Shown: positions 12,510-63,600 of the stretch, piece after piece
Position numbering within the stretch: position 1 is the stretch's first letter
Layout of the letters: every line of letters starts with the position of its first letter
NCBI GenBank assembly: GCA_039621445.1
Contig: CP154954.1
Coordinates: forward strand, 35,759,703 to 35,823,702
Reading direction: 5' to 3'
Length of the DNA stretch: 64,000 nucleotides
Origin: Euglena gracilis
Lineage: Eukaryota
Notes under the pieces: model-generated
What the model was told of the DNA's origin: nothing
The model's input: only the letters and a program-made list of their open reading frames with translations
Database searches by the model: none
Translations under genes and position numbers: made by a program

Positions 12510-12915
12510 CAGGACTACCACGTCCGGGAGGAGTACGTGAGGGACGTACTCCGCCGCCTGGGGGTCCAGCCGGAGGGCGACGCTTTTTCTGCACAAAGAA
12601 AACCGCAGGTTTGTCGGCTGGTGGGGGCCAGGGAGCAGGGAGGGAAAAGATGCCTTCAAACAGGACTGGGGCAGGGAGGCTTTGTGGATCAACCCACCTT
12701 ACAAAAAAATCCAGGAGGTTCTCGAAAAAATCAGGAGGGATCAGGCCCATGCCATCCTGGTGATCCCCAGGTGGCCGGGGCGGCGCTGGTACAGGGAGGC
12801 GAGGGGCTTGACAGTGAGCCAAGTCACGTTCCCTCAGGGGACACGATTTTTCGGCAGAGGGGAGGAGTTGTGCCGGGGGACCAAGTGGCCCATCACAGCC
12901 TTTTTGCTGTGCAGG
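12510..12915 (+). pseudogene. Dam-like DNA N6-adenine (amino) methyltransferase domain of the type found in phages and DIRS1 elements
   Basis: DYHV..EYVRDVLRRLGVQPEGDAFS [frameshift in A-run near 12600] NRRFVGWW...DAFKQDWGREALWINPPYKKIQEVLEKIRRDQAHAILVIPRWPGRRWY; NPPY at 12691-12702. Confidence 0.85.
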
Positions 12916-13690: not shown

Positions 13691-13779
13691 CGGCACCGGA
13701 GGCCCACGCTGCCGACCCCCAGACAGAGCGAGGGGTGCCCTCGGTCTTGCTCCGTGAGGTGGGGCAGGGTGCCAGTGAA

Positions 13780-37400: not shown

Positions 37401-37817
37401 TGTGTACCAGGCAGCATGAACATGGCACTGTGCATAGCAGCAAACTGCAAAATGTACAATGTCATGCCAGATAGCACTATTCCATGTTCTGCAATACAAA
37501 TTGCAGAATTAGGAATAGCCTATCCTATCTCGGATCTGCCTTTCCCTTCACAGGTGGTATTATTGTTTTGCTTTGTGTTTCATCAGCCCAAAAGGGCAAA
37601 TCAAAGATTTGAAGGTTTGAACTCCGATAGGAGAACACTACTGGAACTGAAGTTCCAAAATCACACCTGGTTTGCCTTGTGCTCTGCATAAGCCCAAAGG
37701 CAATAAAAACTAATAGTTAAGTGAAAGACTTTCTTTTTTGTTACTCTCCTGGTTTTGTTCCCACTGGAGGGTGTAAGTAGGCCGACAGGCAGTGGGAATA
37801 GAGTCAGGGGACGTACA
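37401..37817 (+). repeat. Putative 5' LTR of copy A (417 bp)
   Basis: TG...GTACA termini; first 12 nt and the GACGTACA-CT-PBS junction are shared with copy B. Confidence 0.75.
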
Positions 37818-37819
37818 CT

Positions 37820-37836
37820 TGGTAGCAGATTTGGTT
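37820..37836 (+). promoter_or_regulatory. Primer-binding site, tRNA-iMet type (TGGTAGCAGATTTGGTT)
   Basis: 2 nt after the CA terminus; conserved in copy B. Confidence 0.75.
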
Positions 37837-38070
37837 TCTTTCCTACGCCCCTTCTCCCCCCTTCTCCCCCTCATCTTAACAGGTGACTTCAAACAGTGAG
37901 TGGTGCTGAGCCTATAGGCTACAAAGCATCCACGAACTGTTTGGAGCCAACTTCCAAGCACAGATACAAGCTTCAGGAGGCTCTGAGCAGTATACGCTGC
38001 CATATCCTTCTAAGTTTGTTCCTTTGCTTACCTTTTTGGGTTTGCTTGTGTTTTTTCTGCAAATAAAAAT

Positions 38071-41000
38071 ATGCAGAGCTCAAGCACCAACACACTCATT
38101 GATGACCAAGAATTGATTGGTTCTTTGAGAAGCACTTCACATGAATTGTCACAAGAGGCGTATACGCTCCAATCAAGGTATACACCCAGCTCTATTGAGC
38201 ATCCCCCCACCCCATTGGTTTCCAGCTCTATTGAGCATCCCCCCACCCCAGTGGTTTCCAGCTCTATTGAGCACCACCCCACCCCAGTTTTCAGCTCTAT
38301 TGAGCATCCCCTTACCGTAATTTTCAGCTCTACCGAGCACACCCCCACCCCGTTTTACAGCTCTATCGAGCAACCCCCCACCCAATGGGTGCCACACCTA
38401 ACGGTGTCCAGCTCTATCGAGCATCCCCCCACATTGGCCAGCTCTATCGAGCAATTACCTCCAACCCCCAGCTCTATAGAGCATTCCCCCACCGTTCCCA
38501 GCTCTATAGAGCATTCCAACACCCAAAGGGTGCAACACCTAACGGTATCAAGCTCCATCGAGCATTTCCCGACGCAGGAGTTTCCACACCTAATTGATTT
38601 AGGCGATAACCCCGCAGCGCAATGGGTGCAACGCCCATCGGCGTGTGGCTCTATCGAGCAACCCATCGCCCAGTGTGATTATCAGCCTTTGCTGCAAAGT
38701 CAGGCATCTTGTTGTAATTCTCTGAATCAAGATGTCGCAACGGTGCCTACAGGCACATTTGGCAAACAACCCACTGATGTGGTTTACCGCATGCTGCCAA
38801 AGGAGGCATTTTTGCACATGCAACATAGTTTGCAAAAGTTGATTACAAAAGTGGAGCCAATAACGGCACTTTTTGAGCACAAAAATCCTCATATGGGAGC
38901 TTTTGTCACGTTGGAGCAGTTCACTGCATTCCAGGAAGCGCAACAGCGCATTATGCAACAGAGCCGTGAATCGGCAAGTTTTCACCATATGCACACCCAA
39001 CGTGGTGAAGGTTTCGCTTCCAGCACTTATGCGCAGCAATTGGAGGAAAGACTTTCCCGGTTGGAGCGAAAGTCATGTAGGTGTGGTGAAAATTCTGCTG
39101 AAATAACAAGTTTTTACTCCCATATTGCGAATATCGCAAGCAGACAGGATGCGTACCACCAACGGTGGCAGAACAATATTGTTGACATCCAGACCACAAT
39201 TGCGGAGTTGCAGAACCGCACTGCGGTACCATGTTCACATAATTTAGAATTTCAGCGACTTTCTGCAGATATGTGTGATGAAAATCACCAAGTCAGAAAA
39301 GAAAATTGTGACAGTCCGATACGGACCGAGGAAACAGTGAATCAGCAAGTCAAAAACTTGCAAAAAGATTTCTCAGCGCTATCCGCGCAAGTTTCGGTGT
39401 TTTTGGAACAGCCAATGGCTGAAAACGTGCGGAATCCGCAAAATACCCCTCCTTCCAAACCACCTCCACAACTGGAGTCTATTTCCGCAGCGGTGCACAC
39501 TCTAGCTGTGCGACTACGGGAATTGGAAAGTGGTTTTGGAAAACTTTCGCAAGATTTCCGGTCTTTTTCTGACAAAATCCCTCTTCTGGTGTGTGCGGCA
39601 GACGGGAGATCCTACGGAGGTAGGTCGCCGGCGCGTAGTACCAAGCCGAGTATCGCTCGAGTAGCTTATTCGGTAAGGTGCTGGGCTCACACGCGGGAGG
39701 TCGTGGGTTCGAGACCCAGGTCTCGAACCCACGAGGACGATATGTCCAAACACCGCAGGCGTATTAAGCGTTTGCAGGAAGATATTGGTGCAATCACCGA
39801 TCATCTGAAAATTCTCGATGACTTGGAGAAAAATTTTCGTGACTATACAGAAAATTTGGATCAAGTACACGCACAATTGCGTTTTTTACAACAAAAACCC
39901 GATATGGGTGTTGTAGGCACACTTGCCGCAGATTCCAGCTCCAAAAGCGCTAATAGCGCACCTGTGGCAGAGCCCATTGGCATGTTGCCTCAAAAATACG
40001 ATACTGCTCATGCAGTGGTCCCTCCCCCAGCGGTACCAGTCCCAATGGACCATTTTTTGGATGATTCGGTTGGTTTTCAAGAGAAAGCCAAGCGAAACCC
40101 TCAAAGAAATCGAAAAATTTGGGAATATGAACTTTGTCGCGGTATGAGCCGCACTCCCGCACATGGTATTGATCCTGAGATGCATCAGCACCACCATTCA
40201 CGCATTCGCGATTCACCAAGTTTGCAAGGTACCTATGGGACACCAAGTGGAATATTGAGTGCGCATTCGCAAAATACACCCAAAAGTACACTTGGTGCAA
40301 CCACCGAGGTACCCGCGCATGGTGCGGTTTTGCGCCCAGGCCCAACCTCCTTGAATACCACCGAAGGGCCATGGGAGTCTCAGAAAGATATCAAAGGAAT
40401 TATCGCTATCGCGAAAAAGGTGAAGCCCCAATGGGACGGTGACCCCACAACATGGAAACAGTTTTTCCGTGACTGGGAGTACTACTGGGATCTGAAAGGA
40501 TCAACCCAAGACGGAAACCCAGAAGTAATCAAAATGGAATTCATAGACTGTTTACCAAAAGACGAAAAGGAACGCGCCAGACAATTGGTCATACGCGGGC
40601 GCATTTCTTTTCAGAATTTGGTAGAGCAATATGCTTCTTCATGTTCCAGTTTGGTTTCCAGAATCACTCTCGAGAAAAAATGGCGGCAATATGCCCCCCA
40701 TGACCGAAAATGGAGGTCGATAGACCTATGGTACTCAAAATGGCTCGCATTGGCAGCCGAAGTAGACGAGTTAGGTGAAACCCAAATGAAAGAGCAATTT
40801 GACGCAGTATTGCTGCACTTTATACCCAAACTCATCAAAGAAATTCACCGCGAGGAACTCGCAGGACATATTTTGACGCTCGATGAGCGATGGAACTATG
40901 TTTCCAAACAATTGAAGCTATCACAGCTTCTCGGACAAATCCAGTTGGCTTATACGAGCCACCCCACAGCAGGAATCCCCGCTATCCAAGTCAGTTCTTT

Positions 41001-41543
41001 GAAAAAAGTGTCACGCTTATCACACACCGCTATGGCGGAATCCAAATTGCGCGATTCGCGCTCTTCAGATGATTTTTGGACAAACTGTGCTTTTTGTGTA
41101 ACAAAAAGGGTCATATATCTTGCCGTTGTCCACATCCCGCAGCGCGAAAGCGCAACACAAGTCCAAGAGGATCAGCCTCATCATGCAGTTCTCGTTTTTC
41201 AAAAAATGCGCATTCGCAAAATTCAAAATTTCGATCACGATCCACATGTTCACTGTGCGGATCAACCAACCACCCCTCACCCAAATGTCGCTATGCGACT
41301 CCTCCCCACCCAAGCCATCGCGATATGACTCGCAGTTCAAAAGATCATACTTCAGTTAAGAGGCATAAGGTAGGTCAACGAACAACCTCTATTGAGGATT
41401 ATCACCCGGCTTCGGGCAGGGAGGGGGATGATACCCCACGTAATAAAAGGGATCATCCCTACTTTAGCGCTCATAAATTCAGAGACGTATATGCGTCAAG
41501 AAAGTCAATGGCTGATAGGGCCACCGGTTCGGATTTTGAGTGA
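38071..41543 (+). CDS. gag: Long Gag-like protein (about 1150 aa; one frameshift near 41090) with N-terminal repeats, coiled coils, capsid-like domain and two zinc knuckles
   Basis: KPQWDGDPTTWKQFFRDWEYYW...MEFIDCLP; knuckles C(AF)LCNKKGHISCRC and CSLCGSTNHPSPKC; T5 here versus T6 in copy B explains the frameshift. Confidence 0.8.
38185..38665 (+). repeat. Coding minisatellite, about 13 degenerate copies of SSIEHPPT (cagctctatYgagca core)
   Basis: Directly visible in DNA and in the translation. Confidence 0.85.
39589..39735 (+). other. 147-bp in-frame insertion in gag A, GT...AG-bounded, containing a tRNA-like segment and a perfect 16-bp hairpin
   Basis: Absent from gag B (IPLL|DD versus IPHL|DD); A-box-like TAGCTTATTCGG, B-box-like GGTTCGAGACC; inverted arms 39701-39716 and 39719-39734. 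Confidence 0.75.
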
Positions 41544-42534
41544 AGACACCCGAAACCCAGGGATGTGGACTACAGAGGCTACTAGAAAGGAGGTGACAGG
41601 AGTCATGACCCTAGTCATCCCCTGCCCAGTATCCTTTCTGGTCATCGTTCCAGGATTTTCCGGTGTCCCCGCTCAAAACTCTGCCAAATTTTTGACATAT
41701 AGACCGTTTTGTGTTTCCGGTTGTGGTTTATCATGGGATAGCCCATGAATGTCCATGTGGTTGAGTGGATTCCCGCTCCAAGAATGCACACGACACCGCA
41801 AAATTCTTCCCCCCCTCAAACTTCCACTAATCATCACTTTTACATACCGTTTTCGATGACAGCAACACCGTTTTCAACAACACCAACACCGTTTTCAACC
41901 GGGTAAAGAGAAAGTGCCCCCCCTGCCCACCGCATATCCACAAACGTTCCACATGCGGTAGGGGTAACAAGTAGCTTAACCCCCATTCGTTCCACTGGGT
42001 TCCAAGACGAAAGCCCTAAGGCCTGAAGTTTAAACGGTGTCGAGTAGTCGCCCAGCTGCTACCAACTTTTCGTTTTCCACCAGGTTTGTTGATTGCAGAC
42101 AATCATGTACACCCCCAGCAGCTCCAAAATTCGCATGCTCAAATTTTTACTACACACTCACCCCCGCAGACCGACATGCGCGACCAGGACAACTACTCCG
42201 CACCTTCCCCCCATGGTGTGCACTCTGGGAGAACTTTCCACACAATCACCAACCAAACACAAAGGTGAATATATACATCAAAACTAATCCCCCCACACTC
42301 TATCTCCAACGGAGAGCTCTATTCATTGACTGATTTTTGTCAAGTGCAAGAGAAATTCAGCACTATGTGCACATTCCCCCCCGAAGCGCATAGCGCACAT
42401 CAATGCATGCGCTTTCCCCCCTCGCATTCCCCCCCAAGCGCTAATTGCGCACACCGCGCGTCGCGCGAATCCTGCGCATATCGCGCTTCCAAGCCCACCC
42501 CCCCCACGCATGTTTTGCAGTGAGGCAACTGCCC

Positions 42535-45500
42535 GACACTTTGGTCAAAGTGGCCTTGGCCAGGGACACTTTGGTCGAAGTGGCCTTCGCCAGGGACACT
42601 TTGGTCAAAGTGGCCTTCGCCAGGGACACTTTGGTCAAAGTGGCCTTGGCCAGGGACACTTCGGTCAAAGTGGCCTTCGCCAGGGACACTTTGGTCAAAG
42701 TGGCCTTCGCCAGGGACACTTTGGTCAAAGTGGCCTTGGCCAGGGACACTTTGGTCAAAGTGGCCTTCGCCAGGGACACTTTGGTCAAAAGTGGCCTTCG
42801 CCAGGGACACTTTGGTCAAAGTGGCCTTGGCCAGGGACACTTTGGTCAAAGTGGCCTTGGCCAGGGACACTTTGGTCAAAGTGGCCTTCGCCAGGGACAC
42901 TTTGGTCAAAGTGGCCTTCGCCAGGGACACTTTGGTCAAAGTGGCCTTGGCCAGGGACACTTTGGTCAAAGTGGCCTTGGCCAGGGACACTTTGGTCAAA
43001 GTGGCCTTGGCCAGGGACACTTTGGTCAAAGTGGCCTTGGCCAGGGACACTTTGGTCAAAGTGGCCTTGGCCAGGGACACTTTAGGCAAGGTGGCCTTGG
43101 CCAGAGACACTTTGGTCAAAGTGACCTTGGCCAGGGACACTTTGGTCAACGTGGCCTTGGCCAGGAACACTTTGGTCAAAGTGGCCTTGGCCAGGGACAC
43201 TTTGGTCAAAGTGGCCTTGGCCAGGGACACTTTGGTCAAAGTGGCCTTGGCCAGGGACACTTTGGTCAACGTGGCCTTGGCCAGGAACACTTTGGTCAAA
43301 GTGGCCTTGGCCAGGGACACTTTGGTCAAAGTGGCCTTGGCCAGGGACACTTTGGTCAAAGTGGCCTTGGCCAGGGACACTTTGGTCAAAGTGGCCTTGG
43401 CCAGGGACACTTTGGTCAAAGTGGCCTTGGCCAGGGGCACTTAAGGTCAAAGTGGCCTTGGCCAGGGACACTTAAGGTCAAAGTGGCCTTGGCCAGGGAC
43501 ACTTTGGTCAAATTGGCCTTGGCCAGGGACACTTTGGTCAAAGTGGCCTTGGCCAGGGACACTTTCGTCAAAGTGGCCTTGGCCAGGGACCCTTTGGTCA
43601 AAGTGGCCTTGGCCAGGGACACTTTGGTCAAAGTGGCCTTCGCCAGGGACACTTTGGTCAAAGTGGCCTTCGCCAGGGACACTTTGGTCAAAGTGGCCTT
43701 GGCCAGGGACACTTTGGTCAAAGTGGCCTTGGCCAGGGACACTTTGGTCAAAGTGGCCTTCGCCAGGGACACTTTGGTCAAAGTGGCCTTGGCCAGGGAC
43801 ACTTTGGTCAAAGTGGCCCTCGCCAGGGACACTTTGGTCAAAGTGGCCTTGGCCAGGGACCCTTTGGTCAAAGTGACCTTGGCCAGTGACACTTTGGTCA
43901 AAGTGGCCTTCGCCAGGGACACTTTGGTCAAAAGTGGCCTTCGCCAGGGACACTTTGGTCAAAGTGGCCTTGGCCAGGGACACTTTGGTCAAAGTGGCCT
44001 TGGCCAGGGACACTTTGGTCAAAGTGGCCTTCGCCAGGGACACTTTGGTCAAAGTGGCCTTCGCCAGGGACACTTTGGTCAAAGTGGCCTTGGCCAGGGA
44101 CACTTTGGTCAATGTGGCCTTGGCCAGGGACACTTTGGTCAAAGTGGCCTTTGCCAGGGACACTTTTGTTCAAAGTGGCCTTTGCCAGGGACATTTTGGT
44201 CAAAGTTGCCTTGGCCAGGGACACTTTGGCCAAAGTGGCCTTCGCCAGGGACACTTTGGTCAAAGTGGCCTTGGCCAGGGACACTTTGGTCAAAAGTGGC
44301 CTTCGCCAGGGACACTTTGGTCAAAGTGGCCTTGGCCAGGGACACTTTGGTCAAAGTGGCCTTGGCCAAGGACACTTTTGTCAAAGTGGCCTTGGCCAGG
44401 GACACTTTGGTTAAAGTGGCCTTGGCCAGGGACACTTTGGTCAAAGTGTCCTTGTACAGGGACACTTTGGTCAAAGTGGCCTTGGCCAGGGACACTTTGG
44501 TCAAAGTGGCCTTGGCCAGGGACACTTTGGTCAAAGTGGCCTTCGCCAGGGACACTTTGGTCAAAGTGGCCTTCGCCAGGGACCCTTTGGTCAAAGTGGC
44601 CTTGGCCAGGGACACTTTGGTCAAAGTGGCCTTGGCCAGGGACACTTTGGTCAAAGTGGCCTTCGCCAGGGACACTTTGGTCAATGTGGCCTTCGCCAGG
44701 GACACTTTGGTCAAAGTGGCCTTGGCCAGGGACACTTTGGTCAAAGTGGCCTTCGCCAGGGACACTTTGGTCAAAGTGGCCTTCGCCAGGGACACTTTGG
44801 TCAAAGTGGCCTTGGCCAGGGACACTTTGGTCAAAGTGGCCTTCGCCAGGGACACTTTGGTCAAAGTGGCCTTGGCCAGGGACACTTTGGTCAAAGTGGC
44901 CTTGGCCAGGGACACTTTGGTCAAAGTGGCCTTCGCCAGGGACAGTTTGGTCAAAGTGGCCTTCGCCAGGGACACTTTGGTCAAAGTGGCCTTGGCCAGG
45001 GACACTTTGGTCAAAGTGGCCTTGGCCAGGGACACTTTGGTCAAAGTGGCCTTTGCCAGGGACACTTTGGTCAAAGTGGCCTTGGCCAGGGACACTTTGG
45101 TCAAAGTGGCCTTGGCCAGGGACAGTTTGGTCAAAGTGGCCTTGGCCAGGGACACTTTGGTCAAAGTGGCCTTGGCCAGGGACACTTTGGTCAAAGTGGC
45201 CTTGGCCAGGGACACTTTGGTCAAAGTGGCCTTGGCCAGGGACACTTTGGTCAAAGTGGCCTGGGCCAGGGACACTTTAGGCAAGGTGGCCTTGGCCAGG
45301 GACACTTTGGTCAAAGTGGCCTTGGCCTGGGACACTTTGGTCAACGTGGCCTTGGCCAGGAACACTTTGGTCAAAGTGGCCTTGGCCAGGGACACTTTGG
45401 TCAAAGTGGCCTTGGCCAGGGACACTTCGGTCAAAGTGGCCTTGGCCAGGGACACTTTGGTCAACGTGGCCTTGGCCAGGAACACTTTGGTCAAAGTGGC

Positions 45501-46290
45501 CTTGGCCAGGGACACTTTGGTCAAAGTGGCCTTCGCCAGGGACACTTTGGTCAAAGTGGCCTTGGCCAGGGACACTTTGGTCAAAGTGGCCTTGGCCAGG
45601 GACACTTTGGTCAAAGTGGCCTTGGCCAGGGACACTTAAGGTCAAAGTGGCCTTGGCCAGGGACACTTAAGGTCAAAGTGGCCTTCGCCAGGGACACTTT
45701 GGTCAAAGTGGCCTTGGCCAGGGACACTTTGGTCAAATTGGCCTTCGCCAGGGACACTTTGGTCAAAGTGGCCTTGGCCAGGGACCCTTTGGTCAAAGTG
45801 GCGGTGGCCAGGGACACTTTGGTCAAAGTGGCCTTCGCCAGGGACACTTTGGTCAAAGTGGCCTTCGCCAGGGACACTTTGGTCAAAGTGGCCTTGGCCA
45901 GGGACACTTTGGTCAAAGTGGCCTTGGCCAGGGACACTTTGGTCAAAGTGGCCTTCGCCAGGGACACTTTGGTCAAAGTGGCCTTGGCCAGGGACACTTT
46001 GGTCAAAGTGGCCTTCGCCAGGGACACTTTGGTCAAAGTGGCCTTGGCCAGGGACCCTTTGGTCAAAGTGACCTTGGCCAGGGACACTTTGGTCAAAGTG
46101 GCCTTCGCCAGGGACACTTTGGTCAAAGTGGCCTTCGCCAGGGACACTTTGGTCAAAGTGGCCTTGGCCAGGGACACTTTGGTCAAAGTGGCCTTGGCCA
46201 GGGACACTTTGGTAAAAGTGGCCTTCGCCAGGGACACTTTGGTCAAAGTGGCCTTCGCCAGGGACACTTTGGTCAAAGTGGCCTTGGCCA
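42535..46290. repeat. 30-bp minisatellite GACACTTTGGTCAAAGTGGCCTTSGCCAGG, about 125 copies
   Basis: Near-perfect tandem array with occasional 31-bp units. Confidence 0.99.
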
Positions 46291-46572
46291 GCCCAGGTTA
46301 CCATGTAAAAATGGAACAAATTGGGCCTTACTCCGAGTAACCGAATGGGTGTTCCAGGAGGCCTCCAAAGTCAGGGGACCCGTTGGTTTCATGATTGTCG
46401 TGGTTTAATGGTAAGAAAAACATGCAGCGGGAATGTTGGTTGCAAGAAATCATCACATTTAGATGGGTGCATTCGACCATTCCGGGGGACATTTACCAGG
46501 TCAGCCCAGGTTACCATGTAAAAATGGACCAAATTGGGCCTTACTCCGAGTAACCGAATGGGTGTTCCAGGA
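46288..46572 (+). repeat. 213-bp satellite remnant (about 1.3 monomers)
   Basis: Same monomer sequence, joined to the 30-mer array through a shared CAG. Confidence 0.95.
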
Positions 46573-49207
46573 CTACCCTTCATCCCCAAGCACCACTCAC
46601 CCCCCCCCAACCGCAAAATTTTCCGGATACCTGGGGATACGAATCCGGAATCCATGGTTCTGACGTAATCCTGGGATACCCCTTTTTACGTCAGCACCGG
46701 CTGGTAGTGGATTGCCACTCCCACGGTTTGCGCACATCACCGTTCTCCTCTTTGCCCCCCAAACCTTCATCACCTGTGGCGTCAACCGCGATAGCCACCA
46801 ATTTTTCCACACCGTATTCGAAAACTTTTACCCCGTTACCAACCACACCAACCAACTTTTTCCACACCGGGTGTACCGAGAAAGTTCACCCCCTGCCCAT
46901 TGACACGCCAACTTCCGTTCCCCGTGAGGCAGGGCAAGCGAGTAGCGGTACCCCCCTCGTTCCACTGGGTTACAAGACGAAAGCCCAAAGGCCTGAAGTT
47001 ATAACGGTGTCGAGTAGTCGCCCAGCTGCACTAATACCCCGTTTTCCACCAGATGTATCGCTTTCAGATACATCTGTACACCCCCCAGCAGCTTCAAAAG
47101 CGCATCCCAACTTTTACACACGCCCTCACCAGACCAACGTGCGCGACCAGGACCACTACTCCGACACTTCCTTCCAATGTGTGCACTGTAGGAGAATTTC
47201 CGCCCATCCAGATTTCGATTGTGGATGTCTAGTCCAAACACCAACACTAATCCTGATTTCGCGTAACCATACACTTGGTTGCGGATCGCAATGCGCGACC
47301 GTACATCAAGTGCTCCAACAACGAGGTATTGCCTTGTTGTTTGGGCCCGCGAAATCCGTGTCACATACCTCCCCCACCTCCATCTGGCATGATATGGACT
47401 GGGTATGCACCCATCCAACCCATCAACCCTTGGGAATGCCCCTTGGTAGTGTGGATGACACACCCTTGACCTATGTTTGCGGATCCCTGAATTGTGTTAC
47501 CGCTCTTCAGCCCGCGAACCAGGTCGACACCTACGCGATGCGCGTATGGAACGCATTTAATTTTGGTCAATACCGTATTTTGGAGGAATGGTTCTCCAAA
47601 ATCGCGGCTTTGGCTGATTCCTTCGATTTGTCGTTGGAAATTGATGCGTTCTCATCAAAAGCGCATGCGCGCTTGTCGCGATATTGGTCGCGACATACCA
47701 ACACATTTCTTAAATTCTGGGGTGATACGGTGCTATGGATGCACCCTCCCCCAAAACTTATCCCGGATGTGGTGGAGAAAATCCTCCGCGATGAAGCGCG
47801 AGGAGCACTCCTCATACCCGTCAATCCGAATGCGGATTGGTTTCATCAACTATCCTACGTGTGTTTTCATTGGTGGGATTTACCCGCTGATGTACCACTA
47901 TTCGAGGATTTTTGTGGTATATTATTACCACCTGTTAAAGAAATCATTTTTCGCGTTTGTTTCTTTGACGCATTCGGAATATCCGATGTGCGTGTGCCAA
48001 GATACCTTGGTACCAATGGGGATGCCACACCCTCAACGCAGATTTCTGCGGTCATTGAGAGTTCGGACCAACATCCCAAGTCCGCTGACTATTGTTCGCG
48101 AATTACTCGCGAATTTCATGGTGTACTGGATAATCCAGTTTACGCCTGCGACATCGACCCCGCGATTCGCGGTCCGTTCGGTGTTTGCAAAATCGAGCTC
48201 AAGGAGGGCGCTAAACCCATGCACCGGAAATTCTTCCGTTGCTCGGGTGAACGCGAACAGGCTCTCAACGAGATGATTGAGAAGCTCATCCAGCGGAAGT
48301 GGATTATCCCTTCCAAGGGCGAGTGGACATCACAAGCTCTTGTGGTGCCCAAACCCGCTGACCAGTCTGGTCAGAAGAAGTGGAGACTGGTGCTGGATTA
48401 CCGGTACCTGAACTCCCAAACGAAGGATGACCCCTTCCCGTTACCGCTGATCGAGGATTTGATCACCAAACAATCGGATAACAGATTGTGGTCAATCTTT
48501 GATCTGGAAGACGGTTTCCATCAGATGCATTTGAATCCTGATTCACAACCGTACACGGCATTCGTGACATCCAAGGGTGTGTACCAACGGACGGTACTCC
48601 CCATGGGTGTTAAGAATGGCCCAGCCATGTTTCAACGCATGATCCAGTGGGTTTTGCGCGATTTACCGTTTGCTCTGGTGTACATCGATGATGTACTGGT
48701 GGGAACCAAACCGCCATCCGCGAAATCGGGCGGGGATATCCTCGACCCGCATTATCGCGATGTGCGCGCGGTATTATCCGCGTTCCAAAAGCATGTGCTT
48801 TTTGTGAAGGGTTCCAAAATGCACCGGTTTCGCAAAATTATTAAGTTTTGCGGACACATCCTGAGCAACGGGCAGCGTAAAGCCGCACCCAGTAAGATGG
48901 AGGCCATTAAGAAATGGACTCCTGAGGTCATTAAGACCTTAACGCATTTAAAGGGATTTTTGGGATTAGCCCAATACTACGCGATTTACATGAAAGATTT
49001 CGCGAAAATCGCGGTACCCCTAACCCGACAACTCAAAAATCGGACACCCGATAACGCAAGAGTCATTTGGGATGACCCAATGCGCGAGGCCTTGAAAAAA
49101 ATCAAGGACTTGCTCCTCGAGAACGTGGTTCTCGATATCGCGGATCCATACAAACCGTATGTCCTGGAAGTCGACAGCAGCGATTACGCTGTTGGCGGGG
49201 TTCTTAG
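46573..49207 (+). mobile_element. pol: Family 2 Gypsy internal fragment C: Dam-like domain, RT and truncated RNase H (ORF 46707-49373 runs into the satellite)
   Basis: IDAFSS...RYWS...FWGDTVLWMHPPPKLIPDVVEKILRDEARGALLIP; KWRLVLDYRYLN, FPLPLIED, FDLEDGFHQ, LPMGVKNGPAMFQ, YIDD, FCGHIL, VLEVDSSDYAVGGVLS. Confidence 0.92.
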
Positions 49208-51292
49208 CCGAGTAACCCAATGGGTGTTCCAGGAGGCCTCCAAAGTCAGGGAATGTTGGTTGCAAGAAATGAGCACATTTAGATGGGTGCATTCGACCAT
49301 TCCGGGGGACATTTACCAGGTCAGCCCAGGTTGCCACCTAAAAGAGGACCAAATTGGTCCTTACTCCGAGTAGCCGAATGGGTGTTCCAGGAGGCCTTCA
49401 AAGTCCGGGGACCCGTTGGTTTCATGATTGTCGTGGTTTAATGGTAAGACAAACATGCAGCGGGAATGTTGGTTGCAAGAAATGAGCACATTTAGATGGG
49501 TGTATTCGACCATTCCGGGGGACATTTACCAGGTCAGCCCAGGTTGCCAGGTAAAAATGGACCAAATTGGTCCTTACTCCGAGTAACCCAATGGGTGTTC
49601 CAGGAGGCCTTCAAAGTCGGGGGACCCGTTGGTTTCATGATTGTCGTGGTTTAATTGTCAGAAAAACATGCAGCGGGAATGTTGGTTGCAAGAAATGAGC
49701 ACATTTAGATGGGTGCATTCGACCATTCCTGGTGACATTTACCAGGTCAGCGCAGGTTGCCACGTAAAAGTAGACCAAATTGGGCCTTACTCCGAGTAAC
49801 CGAATGGGTGTTCCCGGAGGCCTCCAAAGTCAGGGGACCCGTTGGTTTCATGATTGTCGTGGTTTAATGGCAAGAAAAACATGCAGCGGGAATGTTGGTT
49901 GCAAAAAAATGAGCACATTTAGATGGGTGCATTCGACCATTCCCGGGGACATTTACCAGGTCAGCCCAGGTTACCATGTAAAAATTGGCCAAATTGGGCC
50001 TTACTCCGAGTAACCGAATGGGTGTTCCAGGAGGCCACCAAAGTCAGGGTGCCTGTTGGTTTCATGATTGTCGTGGTTTAGTGGTAAGAAAAACATGCAG
50101 CAGGAATGTTGGTTGCAAGAAATGAGCACATTTAGATGGGTGCATTCGACCATTCCGGGGGACATTTACCAGGTCAGCCCAGGTTACCATGTAAAAACGG
50201 ACCAAATTGGGCCTTACTCCGAGTAACCGAATTGGTGTTGCAGGAGGCGTCCAAAGTCAGGGGACCCGTTGGTTTCATGATTGTCGTGGTTTAGTTGTAA
50301 GAAAAACATGCAGCGGGAATGTTTGTTGCAAGAAATGAGCACATTTAGATGGGTGCTTTCGACCATTCCGGGGGACATTTGCCAGGTCAGCCCAGGTTAC
50401 CACGTAAAAATGGACCAAATTGGGCCTTACTCCGAGTAACCGAATGGGTGTTCCAGGAGGCCTCCAAAGTCAGGGGACCCGTTGGTTTCATGATTGTCGT
50501 GGTTTAATGGTAAGGAAAACATGCAGCGGGAATGTTGGTTGCAAGAAATGAGCACATTTAGATGGGTGCATTCGACCATTCCGGGGGACATTTGCCAGGT
50601 CAGCCCAGGTTACCATGTAAAAATGGACCAAATTGGGCCTTACTCCGAGTAACCGAATGGGTGTTCCAGGAGGCCTCCAAAGTCAGGGGACCCGTTGGTT
50701 TCATGATTGTCGTGGTTTAATGGTAAGAAAAACATGCAGCGGGAATGTTGGTTGCAAGAAATCAGCACATTTAGATGGGTGCATTCGACCATTCCGGGGG
50801 ACATTTACCAGGTCAGCCCAGGTTGCCACCTAAAAGAGGACCAAATTGGTCCTTACTCCGAGTAGCCTAATGGGTGTTCCAGGAGGCCTTCAAAGTCCGG
50901 GGACCCGTTGGTTTCAAGATTGTCGTGGTTTAATGGTAAGACAAACATGCAGCGGGAATGTTGGTTGCAAGAAATGAGCACATTTAGATGGGTGCATTCG
51001 ACCATTCCGGGGGACATTTACCAGGTCAGCCCAGGTTGCCAGGTAAAAATGGACCAAATTGGTCCTTACTCCGAGTAACCCAATGGGTGTTCCAGGAGGC
51101 CTTCAAAGTCGGGGGACCCGTTGGTTTCATGATTGTCGTGGTTTAATTGTCAGAAAAACATGCAGCGGGAATGTTGGTTGCAAGAAATGAGCACATTTAG
51201 ATGGGTGCATTCGACCATTCCTGGTGACATTTACCAGGTCAGCGCAGGTTGCCACGTAAAAGTAGACCAAATTGGGCCTTACTCCGAGTAAC
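49208..51292 (+). repeat. 213-bp satellite, diverged block (about 10 monomers)
   Basis: Same monomer with more substitutions (gttgccac, tggtcc, ccttcaaag). Confidence 0.96.
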
Positions 51293-54200: not shown

Positions 54201-56144
54201 ACATCGAAATAACTGGTGGTCATCGACGAACAACCAAGATTTCCGTACTCTTAACCACCAGCCAGTGGTACATCAGCGGGTAACCCCAACTGCCGTGGCT
54301 TTGGTGAACCAATCCGCATTCGGATTGACCGGTATGAGGGGAGTTCGTTCATCCTGGGGGATTTTCTCCACCACATGGGATAAGTTTGGGCGGACTGGAG
54401 TCGGAATCGGTGCACCCCAAAATCCACCGATACACCTTCGGCCGTAGTTGACATGGCAGTAGCGACCAATACCGATCGAAAAACCGGACACCTGCGATTT
54501 TGATGGGCTCAATTTCCACAACATGAAGGAATCACTCGCCGGCGCTTTTGGAGACCCAGTTTTCACAATAACGGCGTTGACCTTAAATGCGTTCCATACC
54601 GCATCGCGTACTGCGTCGACCAGTGGCGCTGGGGTGAAGAGCGGTCTTCACGGGATCCACCTGGTCAAGGAGTGTGTCATGGGGCTCCCAAGGGTGATGG
54701 GTTGGATGGGTGCATACCCAGCCCCATATCATGACCAATGGACTATGTGTGCACGGGCTTTGCTGCCTCGGCAATCCACTCGGTTGTTGCACGTTGCCAA
54801 TGTAACGCGCGCCCTTTGCGATGGTGTATGGTTACGCGAATCCCCCCCGTTGTGGTCCAATGCCCACTCTGGCACATCCGTACAAAAACGGGAACCCCTT
54901 CCGTGGTGGCTCCTTGCCGACAACAAACGTTGGGCCCTGACGTGGATGTCGAACCTTCGTTCATCTTGCTGGTAAGAAGAACCCACTGTCAGTAACACGG
55001 AAATGTACCACCACCGTACTGTAGCAGCAGGTGACAAACAAGCAAATCGCACACACGGGAAGTATTTCACCATTGAAGGACCTAACGTGATTGCCCCAGC
55101 GGTCACTGACACGTTTGGAACGGCACGAGGGGACCGCTACTCGCCTTGCCCTGCCAAAGTAAGGAACACCGTTGGTGTGTCACCTGGGCAGGGGTGTTCC
55201 TTCGCGGTACCCCGGTGTGGAAACCGTGGAGCGGGTGCACAACCGGCAACAAAGAAGTAAAAGGTTCGAAGGTGATGGAAAAAACTGGTGACTTCCCAGG
55301 ACAGACCGCACAAACAGAACGCCCACGGGTCTTGCGTTTGGGGCCTGCCGCGCGGTTGATGTGCGCAAACCGTGGAACAGTGGCACCATCCCCCCCTACC
55401 CGCCGGTGCTGCCCTTCCACCGGGAGCTTCACAAAAAACAACACCAAAAAACAACCAGGATTCCCGGATGGACTCCGGACTATAAAACACCCAGGTATCC
55501 GGAAATTGCGGTTTGGGGGGGTGTGAGTGGTGCTTGGGGACCGAGGGGTAGGACTATGTCCAAAAAGCATCCCCAAGTCACCCACCTCAAACACACAACG
55601 GGAAAACCCCACAAAAACCCCACAAACGGTGGTCAGCCGTCGTAATTTTGATGGCGTCTTGGCTTGCACCAACAAAAAAGTAACCGGGGATGAGTGATCA
55701 CCCACCCGAAAAAAGTAGTCAAATGCCGCACAAACCGTGGTCCATGAGAATTGACTTTTGCACAAAAATTTTGGATTTTTTCCGCTTAAACCCGACCAAA
55801 ACAGTTCCACCTGGTCGGGGTAGCGCGAAGGGCGAGACTGCGAACACAAAAGCGTTTTCTTGACAAGCTACCAGACACAATCCATGGAACCTTTTCCTAC
55901 CTTTGCACACATTCCAGAGCGGTAACGGAAAACCGCAGTGGGGCCCGAACTGGGCAACGGCCCCGACTTTGGGGGTGAGGTACGACCACAGAAACCGGAA
56001 GGCCCATTCACAACACAATGGCAGGGTGGGCAGGGTTGTGGAGGTCCTACCTCCATCTGTTCATTAGCCCAGAGGTCCGTGCCCTCGGACCTCGGGTTCC
56101 CCTACTCCAGGTCCGAACCGGCCGAATCGCCGGCTATGGGCCTT

Positions 56145-59100
56145 TTAGAGGTATAAAACGGATTTAAACGTGCGCACCGCCATGCGGGCCTTGTCGAAAT
56201 CGGTATCCGTGGTCTCATCCCCCTCCCTGCCCGAAGCCGGGGTGTCATCCTCCAAACAAGATATCTTGAAACCGACTTTATGGCAGTTGGAGGAGTGACC
56301 CTTGTCACCGCGATTCATACCGCGATGACGTTGGCCAGGGCAGGGAGAATGAGAACGCGGACATTTGGATGAGTGGTGATCACTCGATCCACAAAGCGAA
56401 CACCGAGATTTGGGTCGCGATTCTTGGTAACGGGGGGATCGGTTTCCCGATTTCCCGTCAAACCGTCGTGGTGACCGGATATCCCGTCGACCATGACCGG
56501 TGTATCGGGGTTTTCCCGATGACGATCGCGAAGAAGATTATCCGCTTCGCGAACGCGATCGCGATGTCTCGCGATGAGAATCACGCTTCTTGGCCGGGGC
56601 ACCGGGTGACCTACCCCGAGGGGTACCGTGTTTCCGCTTATCGCGGAACGGGATCCGGGGGCTAATACCACCGGAACGGGGACCCGATGACCGTGAATTG
56701 CCCGATTGGCGTGAAAACGCGGAGGAACCCGAACCTCGTGATGAGGTCGAGCCTCGCGGACTCTGAATACGCTTACGCGCTTCAGGATTAGGACATTCCC
56801 GAGACATATGTCCCGATTTGTTGCACAAAAAAGCACACTTTATCCGTGGCTTGGTCCGAAGAACGCGGTATCGCGTTTTCGATCCCGTGGTGGGTGAAGC
56901 GGGTGGAACTGGTGATTTTTGCAATGCGTTCACCGAACCAGCCGGTAATCCAGCGGTTGGGTGTGCGGTATACGCGGATTGAATCTGACCAAGAAGCTGT
57001 GATAGCTTCAGTTGCTTGGAAACATAATTCCAGCGTTGGTCAAGAGTCATTGCATTACCCGCCAACTCCTCACGATGGATATCCTTGATGAGGCTAGGCG
57101 TGAAATGCATGAGAACAGCGTCAAACTGTTCGCGCATTTGCTTTTCACTGAGTTCATCCACTTCAGCGGCAAGTCCTAACCATTTGGCATACCAAAGGTC
57201 AATGGACTTCCATTTGCGATCGGGTGGGGCGCATTGCCGCCACTTGGTCTCCAGGGTAATCCTAGCGACCAAACTTGAACTGGTGGAAGCGTATTGCTCC
57301 ACCAGGTCATCAAAGGAAACGCGGTAGCGAATGACAAGTTGTCGCGCGCGCTCCTTCTCATCCCTAGGGAGGCAATCGATGAATTCCATCTTGATCACCT
57401 TCGGGTTTGTGTCCTGGGTTGGCCCTTTCAATGCCCAGTAGTACTCCCAGTCCCGGAAAAACTGTCTCCATGTGGTTGGATCACCGTCCCATTGGGGTTT
57501 CACCTTATTCGCGATTGTGATGGTGCCCTTGAAGTCTTTCTGAAAAACCCGTTGGCCCTCGGTGGTATTCCGTGGATTCGGTCCCGGGTACGCTCGAGCA
57601 CCAAGCGTATCCTTTCCGGATTCTTGTCGGAATCGCGAAATTTCTGGTGAAGGTGAATCCTGGTACCGGAAATCCGGTCGCAAACCCTGTTGGTCACCCG
57701 TAATAGGGGGACACTCCGGTGTGGGGGTATGTCGCGCATGCAACATGTGACCCACTCCCGGTGTACGGGATTGGCTCATTCCACGCACAAGCATGGAATG
57801 ATGGATTTCTTGGTGGAGACTTGGCCGAATCGCCGTTTTTTCCGAAAATTCCGTTCCCGTAATGGGAGATTCATCCGAAAACTGGTTTTGAGTTGTAGGC
57901 AAGGCCAGTGGTGGCACAATTCGCGGAATCGCGGATTGTGACACTCGGGACACGGGTGGTGGTGGTGCATGTGCACCCAGATTCGGGTTGTGGAAACGCG
58001 AATCTGGAGCATCTGGCGCATCTTCGGCAATGCATACTGCCGAATTGCGGTGTGAAACCCGCTGTTGGTTGGACACATTATCCAAACACACAGACAAGTC
58101 ATGCACACTTTGCTCCAAATGCTCAACGTGTTGGATTTGGCCGCAAATACGGTCAACTTCATCCTCCAAAGCGCAAATACGCTTGCGGTAACAAAAAAAG
58201 TCATCCAAGTGCGGAATCCTTTCGGAAATTCCGGTAACATCTGGAACAAGTTTCCCGTGAGACTTATCCAGTGTTTGGAGTTGTCCCATTAATGCTTTTA
58301 CAGCATTTGAGAGAATCTGCAAAGGTGATGTCACCTTGGTTGGTGTGGTGGTGGGTGCAACCGGTGCAGGGTTATCCGACAACACGGTTGTGGTACCCAT
58401 GGGCAAATTTCCAGGTCGTGGCTTATCCAACAACGCGGAAATCCGCTCATCCAACCTGGTAATCTCACCTTGCGTGGATCGGGCATTCCGATTCACCGAT
58501 TCCTCAAGCCGTAATAGGATGTTGCAGAAATCTTGCAAGGTTTCCTGATTGTTAGTGAGCATTTTGTCATAAAATGCCTTGAAATCAGGGTTCTCGGTAA
58601 TCCGAGAACTTGAACCTGCAGGTAGAGACTGCATTTCCGTTACTTTGGTAGACACCGATGCATACCGGGTCTGGAGTTCTCCAATAGCAGTCTGAATGCC
58701 GCTAATGTCCGGAACTCGGTGGGAAAGTGCGGAATAGCTTTGTTGCAAACCCGCAATGGCCGAGTTAATCCCGCCAATGTCGGATTGCAACTGCAACTGC
58801 AGGGAATCCTGCCGTTGTGCCATTTCCGCGACTTTCGCGCTCAGATTGGATAATCCAACCCGATTTGCGTCACAATAGCAGGTTTTCTGCTCCAAACGGT
58901 AAAGTCGCTCCTCCAACTGCCGCACATACGTGTGGGGAGCAAAATTCTCGTTGGCTTGTGACTGGAATTACCGAAACTTTTCCGTTTCATCGCACAACTG
59001 CATAATGCGGTGTTACGATTCATGGAAAGATGCGGACAATGTGGTGAAATGGTCCATAGACACAAATCCACCACTGCTTGATGTTGCAGATGACGAATCT

Positions 59101-60080
59101 CGTGCATGCAACTGTTGTTGCAAATGCAACAACGCGGATGAACAGGACTCCATTTGTCCCGATAATCGTTGTAGTGAGTCGTGCAAGTGCAGAAACTTGG
59201 AGTCGTTCCGCGTTTCCGCTTCATGCATGCATTCACTAATTTGCCGGAAGTGTTGCGGGAGTTGTTGGCACATTTTGTCAAAGGGTTCCCGAAAGTTTGC
59301 AAGGTCAATACCCGTACTTTCGAAATTCCTCTGGCAATATCTGCCAACTTCCTGCAAGTAATTCCAGCAGTGTTCCAGCTTGGTGAAGACATGTTTCTGG
59401 TTGTCCTCATCAAACTGAAGCACTTTGTTCAATGCGGTTGCACACTCTGCAACGCATTGTTGCACATGGTTGAACTGCCTCACAAGGGGGTGATCCCCTG
59501 GAAGCCGAGCAACAATATCCTGCACATCCTCAGCAGTGAGGAGCTCACCAGTGCCCTTCCCATAGTCATCCATGGGTTGGGATGTACCGGAGAATTCCGG
59601 CACCACGAGGCGAGTCTCCGGTTGCCAAGGTAGTGCGGGATAGCACCCGATATCGGGGGGCGGTGGCAAAGCTCTGTAAGGGCTTGCCGGAGGAAGAGCG
59701 GGTGGTGGTTGAAAGAAACACGGGGTTTCCAACCCACCATCACCAGAGAAGCCCGGTGGCGGAATCACCACGGGTCTCTCCGGTGTGTGCAGCTGCACCG
59801 TTGCCGCAGACAGAGGCGAATACTCTCGTTGTGGCAAGGTGAGTGCGGAAGAGGCCGCATTAGCCTCTGAAGACGATGAAGTGGAGGGCTCATCGCCGAC
59901 CACTTTCAATGATGACAAGTGTTGCAATTGTGACAATTGAACCAATTTTGCCTCATCGGCGTGGGAACTGGAAGCACTTTCACATAAAAGCTTCCAATCC
60001 CCATTTTCTTGGTCAATGCCTTGCAATGATGCCTGTAATAAGTCATAATTGAATTGATGGTTGGGGCCTGTGCTTTGCAT
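56145..60080 (-). pseudogene. gag: Long gag, single frame interrupted by three TAA stops
   Basis: ORFs 59013-60113 and 56538-58925 and the downstream segment are in one frame; KPQWDGDPTTWRQFFRDWEYYW; CAFLCNKSGHMSREC and CSLCGSSDHHSSKC. Confidence 0.8.
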
Positions 60081-60363
60081 CTTTCTGATGACAAAAACAG
60101 CAAAAACCCTCAAAACTAAGCAGTTGTGCTGGCACCAGAGGGGCTGTAACGGGTAATACCGTACAGAACCTTCCGGAGCCTGCTCGTCTGCTTAGACGTT
60201 GACTAGAAGCCGGGAGCTGACTCTGCGACCGTGTAATAACGGTGCAGGGGCTCTCCGCTGCCAGTCAGCGTAGTATCGAACCAATCTGCTACCAAGTGTA
60301 ATACCTGGTAGCCTTTCTTTCTGTGAAGTATGTATATAGGATCGTAACCAATCTGCTACCAAG

Positions 60364-60676
60364 TGTACGTCTGATTCCCAATTCCCCTTTCCAAATTCCC
60401 AAAAGCCTTCGCTTTCGCCTTGGCGCACCTACTTGGGAACTGAAAATCAGAGAAACAGAAAATCCCTTTACCCACTTCCCAAGAAGCAAAGCACGGAGCA
60501 ATGCAGGGGGTACGGACTGGATAACCAAGTCCGGTCCGATGGAAAGGAAGGAAAAGGTATGAAGAAGAATACCACCTGTGGAGAGAGAAGGGGCACCCAT
60601 TAGGAGATCCTAATAGGATCTGCTTCCATCCTAACTTCCTCAACGGAAGGGGACAGAAGCATACGCCTGGTACACA
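60364..60676 (-). repeat. Putative 5' LTR of copy B (313 bp, or 380 bp if it ends at 60297)
   Basis: TG start at the satellite edge; ends GACGTACA before CT-TGGTAGCAGATTGGTT. Confidence 0.7.
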
Positions 60677-63600
60677 GTAAGGCCCAATTTGGTCCATTTT
60701 TACGTGGTAACCTGGGCTGACCTGGTAAATGTCCCCCGGAAAGGTCGAATGCACCCATCTAAATGTGCTCATTTCTTGCAACCAACATTCCCGCTGCATG
60801 TTTTTCTTGCCATTAAACCACGACAATCATGAAACCAACGGGTCCCCTGACTTTGGAGGCCTCCTGGAACACCCATTCGGTTACTCGGAGTAAGGCCCAA
60901 TTTGGTCCATTTTTACATGGTAACCTGGGCTGACCTGGTAAATGTCCCCCCGAATGGTCGAATGCACCCATCTAAATGTGCTCATTTCTTGCAACCAACA
61001 TTCCCGCTGCATGTTTTTCTTACCATTAAACCACGACAATCATGAAACCAACGGGTCCCCTGACTTTGGAGGCCTCCTGGAACACCCATTCGGTTACTCG
61101 GAGTAAGGCCCAATTTGGTCCATTTTTACATGGTAACCTGGGCTGACCTCGTAAAGTCCCCCGGAATGGTCGAATGCACCCATCTAAATGTGCTCATTTC
61201 TTGCAACCAACATTCCCGCTGCATGTTTTTCTTACCATTAAACCACGACAATCATGAAACCAACGGGTCCCCTGACTTTGGAGGCCTCCTGGAACACCCA
61301 TTCGGTTACTCGGAGTAAGGCCCAATTTGGTCCATTTTTACATGGTAACCTGGGCTGACCTGGTAAATGTCCCCCGGAATGGTCGAATGCACCCATCTAA
61401 ATGTGCTCATTTCTTGCAACCAACATTCCCGCTGCATGTTTTTCTTACCATTAAACCACGACAATCATGAAACCAACGGGTCCCCTGACTTTGGAGGCCT
61501 CCTGGAACACCCATTCGGTTACTCGGAGTAAGGCCCATTTGGTCCATTTTTACATGGTAACCTGGGCTGACCTGGTAAATGTCCCCCGGAATGGTCGAAT
61601 GCACCCATCTAAATGTGCTCATTTTTTGCAACCAACATTCCCGCTGCATGTTTTTCTTACCATTAAACCACGACAATCATGAAACCAACGGGTCCCCTGA
61701 CTTTGGAGGCCTCCTGGAACACCCATTCGGTTACTCGGAGTAAGGCCCAATTTGGTCCATTTTTACGTGGTAACCTGGGCTGACCTGGTAAATGTCCCCC
61801 GGAATGGTCGAATGCACCCATCTAAATGTGCTCATTTCTTGCAACCAACATTCCCGCTGCATATGTTTTTATTACCATTAAACCCCGACAAGCATGAAAC
61901 CAACGGGTCCCCTGACTTTGGAGGCCTCCTGGAACACCCATTCGGTTACTCGGAGTAAGGCCCAATTTGGTCCATTTTTACGTGGCAACCTGGGCTGACC
62001 TGGTAAATGTCCCCCGGAATGGTCGAATGCACCCATCTAAATGTGCTCATTTCTTGCAACCAACATTCCCACTGCATGTCTTTCTTACCATTAAACCACG
62101 ACAATCATGAAACCAACGGGTCCCCTGACTTTGGTGGCCTCCTGGAACACCCATTCGGTTACTCGGAGGAAGGCCCACTTTGGTCCATTTTTACGTGGTA
62201 ACCTGGGCTGACCTGGTAAATGTCCAGCGGGAATGGTCGAATGCACGCATCTAAATGTGCTCATTTCTTGCAACCAACATTCCCGCTGCATGTTTTTTTT
62301 TAACCATTAAACCACGGCAATCATGAAACCAACGGGTCCCCTGACTTTGGAGGCCTCCTGGAACACCCATTCGGTTACTCGGAGTAAGGCCCAATTTGGT
62401 CCATTTTTACGTGGTAACCTGGGCTGACCTGGTAAATGTCCCCCGGAATGGTCGAATGCACCCATCTAAATGTGCTCATTTCTTGCAACCAACATTCCCG
62501 CTGCCTGTTTTTCTTACCATTAAACCACTACAATCATGAAACCAACGGGTCCCCTGACTTTGGAGGCCGCCTGGAACACCCATTCAGTTACTCGGGGTAA
62601 GGCCCAATTTGGTCCATTTTTACATGGTAACCTGGGCTGACCTGGTAAATGTCCCCCGGAATGGTCGAATGCACACATCTAAATGTGCTCATTTCTTGCA
62701 AGCAACATTCCCGCTGCATGTTTTCCTTGCCATTAAACCACGACAATCATGAAACCAACGGGTCCCCTGACTTTGGAGGCCTCCTGGAACACCCATTCGG
62801 TTACTCGGAGTAAGGCCCAATTTGGTCCATTTTTACGTGGCAACCTGGGCTGACCTGGTAAATGTCCCCCGGAATGGTCGAATGCACCCATCTAAATGTG
62901 CTCATTTCTTGCAACCAACATTCCCGCTGCATGTTTTTCTTGCCATTAAACCACCACAATCATGAAACCAACGGGTCCCCTGACTTTGGAGGCCTCCTGG
63001 AACACCCATTCGGTTACTCGGAGTAAGGCTCAATTTGGTCAATTTTTATGTGGTAACCTGGGCTGACCTGGTAAATGTTCCCCGGAATGGTCGAATGCAC
63101 CCATCTAAATGTGCTCATTTCTTGCAACCAACATTCCCGCTGCATGTTTTTCTTACCATTAAACCACTGACAATCATGAAACCAACGGGTCCCCTGACTT
63201 TGGTGGCCTCCTGGAACACCCATTCGGTTACTCAGAGTAAAGCCCATTTGGTCCAGTTTTATATGGCAACCCGGGCTGACATGGTAAATGTCTCCCGGAA
63301 TGGTCGAATGCACCCATCTAAATGTGCTCATTTCTTGCAACCAACATTCCCGCTGCATGTTTTTTTTTTAACCATTAAACCACGGCAATCATGAAACCAA
63401 CGGGTCCCCTGACTTTGCAGGCCTCCTGGAACACCCATTCGGTTACTCGGAGTAAGGCCCAATTTGGTCCATTTTTACGTGGTAACCTGGGCTGACCTGG
63501 TAAATGTCCCCCGGAATGGTCGAATGCACCCATCTAAATGTGCTCATTTCTTGCAACCAACATTCCCGCTGCATGTTTTTCTTGCCATTAAACCATTACA

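Follow-up and report, generated by a model that had tools for sequence, protein, structure and literature searches.

A Dam/PCIF1-like domain without the base-stacking aromatic of its motif lies inside a Ty3/Gypsy Pol fragment of Euglena gracilis

A truncated pol fragment of a Ty3/Gypsy retrotransposon family (family 2) lies embedded in satellite DNA of Euglena gracilis, within the window analysed here, a stretch of 64,000 nucleotides (contig CP154954.1, positions 35,759,703 to 35,823,702). A 939-codon open frame (46554-49373, plus strand) contains a Dam-like domain and its motifs, and the order from 5′ to 3′ is an aspartic protease of which only the C-terminal half is present, a poorly conserved linker (about 270 residues), the Dam-like domain, reverse transcriptase (RT) and the beginning of RNase H (Table 1). 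A satellite with a unit of 213 bp breaks the fragment at both its 5′ and 3′ ends. The protease keeps SDVILGYPF (46659-46685) and its catalytic DTG motif is cut away; most of RNase H, the integrase and the chromodomain are missing, and no element ends (paired LTRs, primer binding site, target-site duplication) are left, this copy being a dead fragment. The order of protease remnant, RT and RNase H start is that of a Ty3/Gypsy Pol, and relatives from its RT clade have an integrase after RNase H. The copy ends before the point where a chromodomain would lie, and one was found in P0155, which is 88% identical to family 2 over RT and RNase H (RT-RH), and in seven other clade members. Seven relatives have intact Pol proteins of 1643-1805 aa with RT, RNase H, integrase and chromodomain. 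A first-pass annotation, made from the letters alone, had placed a Dam-like domain before RT in two Gypsy families of this window; this stands, the order being more exactly protease-Dam-RT in family 2 and Dam-DNMT-protease-RT in family 1.

Table 1. Features of the window that bear on the Dam-like domain and its element
Feature	Coordinates	Strand	Basis or remark
Family 1 Dam domain, in-frame part (comparator)	12583..12912	+	NPPY at 12691-12702; then DNMT, protease, RT
Another related element, 5′ part	37401..42239	+	probable 5′ LTR 37401-37817; gag-like ORF 38014-41328
Family 2 Ty3/Gypsy pol fragment, truncated	46573..49208	+	embedded in 213-bp satellite
Aspartic protease, C-terminal half	46611..46736	+	tblastn of full-length relatives; protease HMM
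Dam/PCIF1-like domain inside Pol, predicted amino-methyltransferase fold	47538..47984	+	HMM limits residues 329-477; Pfam Dam; AlphaFold2; fold matches
DAFSS, predicted SAM-binding motif I	47643..47657	+	D and F invariant in 22/22 clade members
HPPP in place of [DNSH]PP[YFW]	47742..47753	+	end of strand 4; model strand E69-72 stops at HPPP
Reverse transcriptase	48348..48863	+	Pfam RVT_1 E 2.8e-25; YIDD at 48681-48692
RNase H beginning, interrupted by satellite	49068..49208	+	Pfam RT_RNaseH_2, profile 1-50 of 100
Decayed Dam-region homolog	54264..54742	-	blastn 69%, E 2e-43; frameshifted, no RT after
Related minus-strand element, 5′ part	56541..60676	-	probable 5′ LTR 60676-60364, from TG...CA ends only

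In each of two related elements in the window, a single probable 5′ LTR is retained together with a site that begins with TGG. The minus-strand element has two gag-like ORFs (60191-59016 and 58967-56541; zf-CCHC E 0.0025) and the primer-binding-site-like sequence TGGTAGCAGA at 60361 and 60294, 67 bases apart. The element at 37401-42239 has such a sequence at 37820 and a decayed protease-linker piece that is 76% identical to 46803-47201, with no Dam domain remaining. In both families the probable LTR ends are followed by TGGTAGCAGA, which may resemble the 3′ end of initiator methionine tRNA, its occurrences including one at 4310 on the minus strand. The decayed homolog that had been placed at about 54250-54560 on the minus strand was found with wider limits; an insertion at motif IV makes its motif unreadable. 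The 213-bp satellite occupies about half of the window (1044-4292, 15695-37400, 49249-51292 and 60676-64000), and both probable 5′ LTRs (37401 and 60676) begin directly in it, as expected if these chromodomain elements are directed to satellite arrays or build up there. Between the 5′ part of one element and the pol fragment lies a 30-bp tandem repeat of 125 copies, 95% identical (42535-46291), whose long stop-free frames are an artefact of the repeat. The segment 51300-54250 is GC-rich and non-satellite; none of the pol relatives compared with it matched, and three of its ORFs gave no Pfam match. Six ORFs within 4.9-7.4 kb and 51.5-55.9 kb matched nothing in Pfam.

In frame, the motif string of the family 2 domain reads IDAFSS ... 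YWS ... LWMHPPPKLIPDVVEKILRDEARGALLIPVNPNADWF, and the motifs and domain reported earlier at 47540-47980 were confirmed, the HMM limits agreeing with them. DAFSS is, to judge from the fold and from methyltransferase anatomy, the predicted motif I. The domain matched Pfam PF05869 (Dam) with E 2.5e-5 when searched alone and 3.9e-4 within the whole ORF, both under the curated cut-off of 28.1 bits, and PHROG 111 (DNA methyltransferase) with E 8e-6. Its likeness to the family 1 domain, first noticed by eye, was borne out by tblastn (35% identity to 12586-12798, E 1.3e-8). A first protein search with the Dam region gave one match among 843 candidates; a search of 1.84 billion representatives gave 375 relatives at E<=1e-3. 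PF05869 was matched by 63 of 79 aligned relatives and PCIF1_WW by two of the 79, and a sequence search of the PDB with the 79-row profile yielded nothing real, the sole match having E 0.61. Two weak metagenome DNA loci from 149 candidates, of 26 residues each, were set aside, and three eukaryotic clusters of the ESM Atlas at 0.94-0.95, with one more in which 11% of members have Dam, serve as a lead only.

The AlphaFold2 model built from the 79-row alignment had a pLDDT of 94.4, with HPPP closing a core strand. The best solved structure in Foldseek was PCIF1 (E 6.4e-4, TM 0.62), which also headed an exhaustive structure search (Z 10.6), followed by PH1948 (10.1), METTL5 (9.0), KsgA (8.9), T4 Dam (8.2) and E. 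coli Dam (7.5); the PCIF1 match (rmsd 2.6 over 127 residues) is tied within 1 Z with that of the archaeal RNA methyltransferase PH1948. On this model 47538-47984 is predicted to form a class I Rossmann amino-methyltransferase fold, in agreement with the kinship proposed from the letters. The motif after strand 4 fits [DNSH]PP[YFW] at positions 1-3, and position 4 is Pro.

Family 2 sequence was present in 20 of the 24 rows listed for public runs, and 8,316 contigs of run X1 aligned to a 1-kb stretch of it. The family is abundant and diverse, contig counts and summed depth giving no copy number; it also occurs in the RNA-labelled runs X15 and X17, whose contigs cannot show transcription. Contig 16 of X15 spans the HPPP site with 12 differences, none of them in the HPPP codons, and is a second public copy with HPPP. 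Among the best-supported 40 of 143 variant sites (four runs), none fell in these codons. The nearest protein, P0003 (78% identical in Dam and 85% in RT), reads HPPL, which together with the second HPPP copy makes copy-specific decay very unlikely. HPPP belongs to the subfamily and not to the clade. NPPY/F is not the family consensus and the predicted fold is that of amino-methyltransferases, so that neither objection foreseen in the first-pass annotation applies.

An RT-RH tree of 121 rows (the best 120 of 302 relatives together with earlier matches, 10 short or split rows dropped; quick search, SH-aLRT support only) placed family 2 inside an 11-row clade with support of 100. The eleventh row, P0155, begins past the Dam position, which leaves ten Dam-bearing members with the motifs HPPP, HPPL, HPPA (twice), HPPS, HPMF, NPSL, NPPI (twice) and NPPL, none of them canonical [DNSH]PP[YFW]. 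NPPF, HPPF, CPPF or CPPP are the motifs of its sister groups, with which it makes up an enclosing clade of 21 rows. Dam-only trees built without motif columns 71 and 74 recovered the same group, with 100/100 from 62 rows and as a 22-row clade with support of 99 from 154 domains. These 154 are the domains covering at least 100 columns (51 shorter ones of 205 were dropped), a set biased towards the query and including a few near-duplicates. Their first motif residue is N in 99, H in 34, C in 12 and another residue in 9, and 69 of the 154 carry the canonical motif. The first residue changed at least 15 times on the Dam tree, which makes the change from N to H recurrent.

Only two of the 22 members of the Dam clade have the canonical motif. 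The first residue is N in 12, H in 9 and Y in one, position 4 varies freely among I, L, V, A, S, P, F and Y (F in 4/22), and the second Pro is lost in four members. Kept in all 22 are D38, F40, S42, W52, W63, W69, P72, K83 and G91 (domain positions); R141 is kept in 19/19 and F124 in 21/21, and a clade-specific change of N45 to H45 is found in 20/22. W98 is kept in 5/22 clade members vs 60/64 NPP[FYW] domains, and W138, present in 46/49 canonical domains, falls outside the three commonest residues in the clade (19 rows); both tryptophans probably face the substrate within the pocket. In a second and separate clade, of 19 rows, the motif is mostly HPPD or HPPN (canonical 1/19), and W98 and W138 are lost too. 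The two clades appear to have eroded the pocket separately, in two events and not 41. The telling loss is that of the base-stacking aromatic at position 4 rather than the His on which the first-pass annotation had put the weight; that weight was misplaced, H being listed in [DNSH]PP[YFW] (PMC4738411, excerpts) and N and H alternating in the clade. A further clade with CPPF (P0023, P0032, P0045, P0052, P0165 and others) keeps the aromatic and has Cys first, which is outside [DNSH].

Silent changes made up 12 of the 17 domain variant sites listed, whereas these base changes would be expected to give 5.1 (p=5e-4), the listing being the best-supported 40 of 143 sites, chosen by support. Mean identity within the clade was 50% for Dam, 50% for the protease, 28% for the linker and 79% for RT (45 non-independent pairs). 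The ratio of Dam to RT divergence was 3.3 in the family 2 clade vs 1.5 in the NPPF sisters, or 2.4 at matched RT distance (9 pairs). The protease to RT ratio rises likewise (3.3 vs 2.15), and the sign of relaxation is therefore weak. The domain appears from these comparisons to be still under selection, with its fold and predicted SAM-binding motif kept.

Dam-bearing Gypsy elements had been proposed in the first-pass annotation to be a lineage of this genome and not a single accident. Our data support this view, which is already published: a May 2026 preprint (Fernandez-Moreno 2026, bioRxiv 10.64898/2026.05.21.726589; hereafter the preprint) describes DAM-LTRs of five lineages, including a Euglena group, and EpiLTRs that combine Dam, DNMT and a chromodomain. 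Family 2 resembles DAM-LTRs in having Ty3/Gypsy RT and a Dam-family domain in Pol with a partial Rossmann fold (PF05869 and RVT_1 share one reading frame) and, in its full-length relatives, a chromodomain. The family was also said to lack a C5-methyltransferase, and indeed no PF00145 match was found in the fragment and no DNMT match in any of the ten Dam-bearing clade members, which sets family 2 and its clade apart from EpiLTRs; the preprint's description of Euglena EpiLTRs fits family 1, which has Dam, DNMT and chromodomain in the window. Almost all DAMs sampled in the preprint have Asn-Pro-Pro and an aromatic, in contrast to HPPP of family 2 and to the absence of canonical motifs in its clade (0/10). 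That motif is described there as a common trait and not as an inclusion rule, inclusion resting on a domain match at E 1e-5. Only one of the ten clade members reached E<=1e-5 against Pfam Dam, so eroded clades were probably under-sampled in the preprint, its profile and database size being different. The main text of the preprint makes no mention of His, histidine, HPP, inactive, catalytically, PCIF1 or protease, and in literature surveys judged mostly from listings the preprint alone was relevant and the eroded clade was not found in print; the figures or supplements of the preprint may show H in a logo. The element class is already known; what is added here is that the base-stacking residue has been lost more than once, each time across a clade, while selection on the domain continued.

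DIRS elements have a tyrosine recombinase and a methyltransferase domain after RT-RNase H, with no protease or DDE integrase. Family 2 differs from them in that a protease precedes its domain and its relatives carry a DDE integrase; the domain follows RT-RNase H in the DIRS-like P0137 and lies between protease and RT in family 2. The domain itself belongs to the same family as that of DIRS1, which was predicted to be inactive and to bind the element transcript or mimic PCIF1 (PMC4738411, excerpts). In the same excerpts Iyer, Zhang and Aravind (2016) put the DIRS methyltransferase in the PCIF1 clade, with which our fold result agrees. PCIF1/CAPAM, a cap-specific adenosine N6-methyltransferase (PDB 6irw, 6irx), is the best structural match, but identity is only 11-14%, family 2 is without the WW or helical cap-binding domain, and HPPP stands against NPPF. 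The retrotransposons of Symbiodinium and Klebsormidium that carry DNMT also have a DNA-methyltransferase-type Pol domain under purifying selection, but theirs are C5 cytosine enzymes with conserved key residues, unlike the amino-methyltransferase fold with an eroded motif in family 2 (de Mendoza et al. 2018, PMC5890265, excerpts).

The motif of amino-methyltransferases begins with a residue that makes a hydrogen bond to the target amino group and ends with an aromatic that stacks the base (PMC4738411, excerpts). PCIF1 double mutants with APPA or SPPG are inactive (10.1101/485862, excerpts), and other eukaryotic DAMs expressed in dam-minus E. coli gave no gain of 6mA (the preprint). The freely varying position 4 and the two lost tryptophans point to a pocket that no longer holds adenine, whereas His alone says little. 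We favour, with moderate confidence, a pseudo-methyltransferase that would bind nucleic acid of the element within its particle, with the fold and predicted SAM pocket kept and the usual adenine methylation lost. That this version might be dead or repurposed for nucleic-acid binding was suggested in the first-pass annotation and, for related DIRS domains, as early as 2016 (PMC4738411, excerpts). The ancestor of a large Gypsy clade would have acquired the domain from a DIRS-like donor and, made within Pol, it would be packaged in the particle beside RT. The adenine-stacking aromatic may have been lost at the base of the subclade, and with it two further conserved tryptophans; the first motif residue could then have drifted between N and H. 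Selection would then retain the domain for a non-catalytic job, most likely a putative binding of element RNA or of the RNA/DNA intermediate in reverse transcription.

Several points speak against a pseudo-enzyme. The PCIF1 mutants alter both residues and do not isolate the aromatic, F is present at position 4 in four of 22 members, and the conserved F124 could stand in as the aromatic. The negative assay of the preprint concerned mostly or wholly other proteins, and misfolding may be its cause. In addition, the preprint reports DAM-LTR copies of E. gracilis to be richer in 6mA than other LTRs, and since families were assigned there by best tblastn match, family 2 may be among the 6mA-bearing DAM-LTRs. 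The domain could be a still-active amino-methyltransferase with a remodelled pocket, His replacing Asn and another aromatic such as F124 replacing the lost one, perhaps acting on RNA, a cap or an RNA/DNA hybrid. Such an enzyme would be in keeping with H as an accepted first residue of the consensus (PMC4738411, excerpts), with the invariance of motif I, the first Pro and F124 in the clade, with PCIF1 at the top of both fold searches, with the preference of PCIF1 for ssRNA over hybrid, ssDNA and dsDNA, in that order (PMC9178792, excerpts), and with the 6mA enrichment. A newly constrained pocket, however, would hardly leave position 4 free and lose the second Pro in four of 22 members, and the raised Dam to RT divergence also counts against it, although the protease ratio is up too. 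We regard continued activity as possible but unlikely; a literature survey judged by titles found no measured active enzyme with a His motif.

We give still less credence to a purely structural part of Pol, such as an RT folding or processing partner or a protein-binding module, for which SAM and nucleic-acid binding would be immaterial. Most invariant residues occupy the hydrophobic core, the rate of evolution of the domain is no lower than that of the protease, and many relatives in the family 1 RT clade have no Dam between protease and RT, so its job is dispensable or replaceable; yet the constancy of the polar residues D38, S42, K83, R141 and H45 goes beyond what a bare spacer needs. Neutral decay in dead copies of active NPPF/Y progenitors, which the dead state of the family 2 copy and the derivation of the protein relatives from single predicted ORFs might suggest, is very improbable and largely refuted by the unchanged HPPP codons in X15 contig 16 and at the best-supported 40 variant sites, by HPPL in P0003 and by ten of ten non-canonical clade members, most with intact frames of 1.6-1.8k aa.

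The reading of the domain as a pseudo-methyltransferase bears on the model of the preprint, in which DAM-LTRs write 6mA on their own copies for a permissive chromatin state. An abundant clade in which the domain persists under selection but the base-stacking residue does not provides a natural control for self-methylation: if Euglena nanopore data already available show as much 6mA on HPPx copies as on NPPF copies, the mark is not written by the element's own enzyme. The question of the 6mA writer is thereby testable on public data. More speculatively, and in our judgement doubtfully, DAM-LTRs may at least twice have turned a captured adenine methyltransferase into a nucleic-acid or cap reader that retains the SAM pocket and serves reverse transcription or packaging. 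If so, 6mA writing would not at all be what the domain is conserved for in LTR elements, and the published preserved pocket would be the product of a detection threshold that drops eroded clades.

RT phylogeny had been suggested as the way to tell a single capture from independent captures in the two families. RT-RH of family 1 is only 37-38% identical to that of family 2, and the order protease-Dam-RT is found on both sides of the deepest split in the Dam-bearing RT clade. Family 1 lies in an RT subclade of 37 rows (98) whose domain orders are shuffled (PR-RT, DNMT-PR-RT, DNMT-Dam-PR-RT, Dam-PR-DNMT-RT and PR-Dam-DNMT-RT), and its Dam groups with those of P0186, P0189 and P0196 (96/84), of which P0186 and P0189 belong to the RT sister group of the subclade and P0196 lies inside it. 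The best trees favour shared descent, and an AU test with four long-branch rows left out and four DIRS-like rows added did not reject family 1 Dam joining the DIRS/Copia-type set (p=0.251). On these trees we lean towards shared descent of families 1 and 2, with which one old capture and a later relocation would fit. The Dam domains of P0228, P0239 and P0243 group with DIRS/Copia-type domains (95/95), which suggests a second capture in the family 1 clade.

Relatives P0192-P0245 of the family 1 RT clade show at least five arrangements of DNMT and Dam modules relative to the protease. Three Dam-bearing relatives (P0184, P0246 and P0249) also carry PF00692, presumably dUTPase, in Pol. In P0124 and P0133 Dam occurs with Ty1/Copia-type RT (Pfam RVT_2, E 3e-14 and 2e-65), with the order integrase-Dam-RT in P0124, and from their sequences these two may be Copia-type DAM-LTRs; Dam lies between integrase and RT in the Chloro-Ochrophyta lineage of the preprint, and the word 'copia' is absent from the preprint's main text. 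Family 1 is present at 7009-15775 as two copies in a 96%-identical inverted pair (9484-11344 vs 15698-13830; 11368-12278 vs 13714-12804), of which the minus copy retains integrase and chromodomain and the plus copy has its Dam frameshifted upstream of motif IV.
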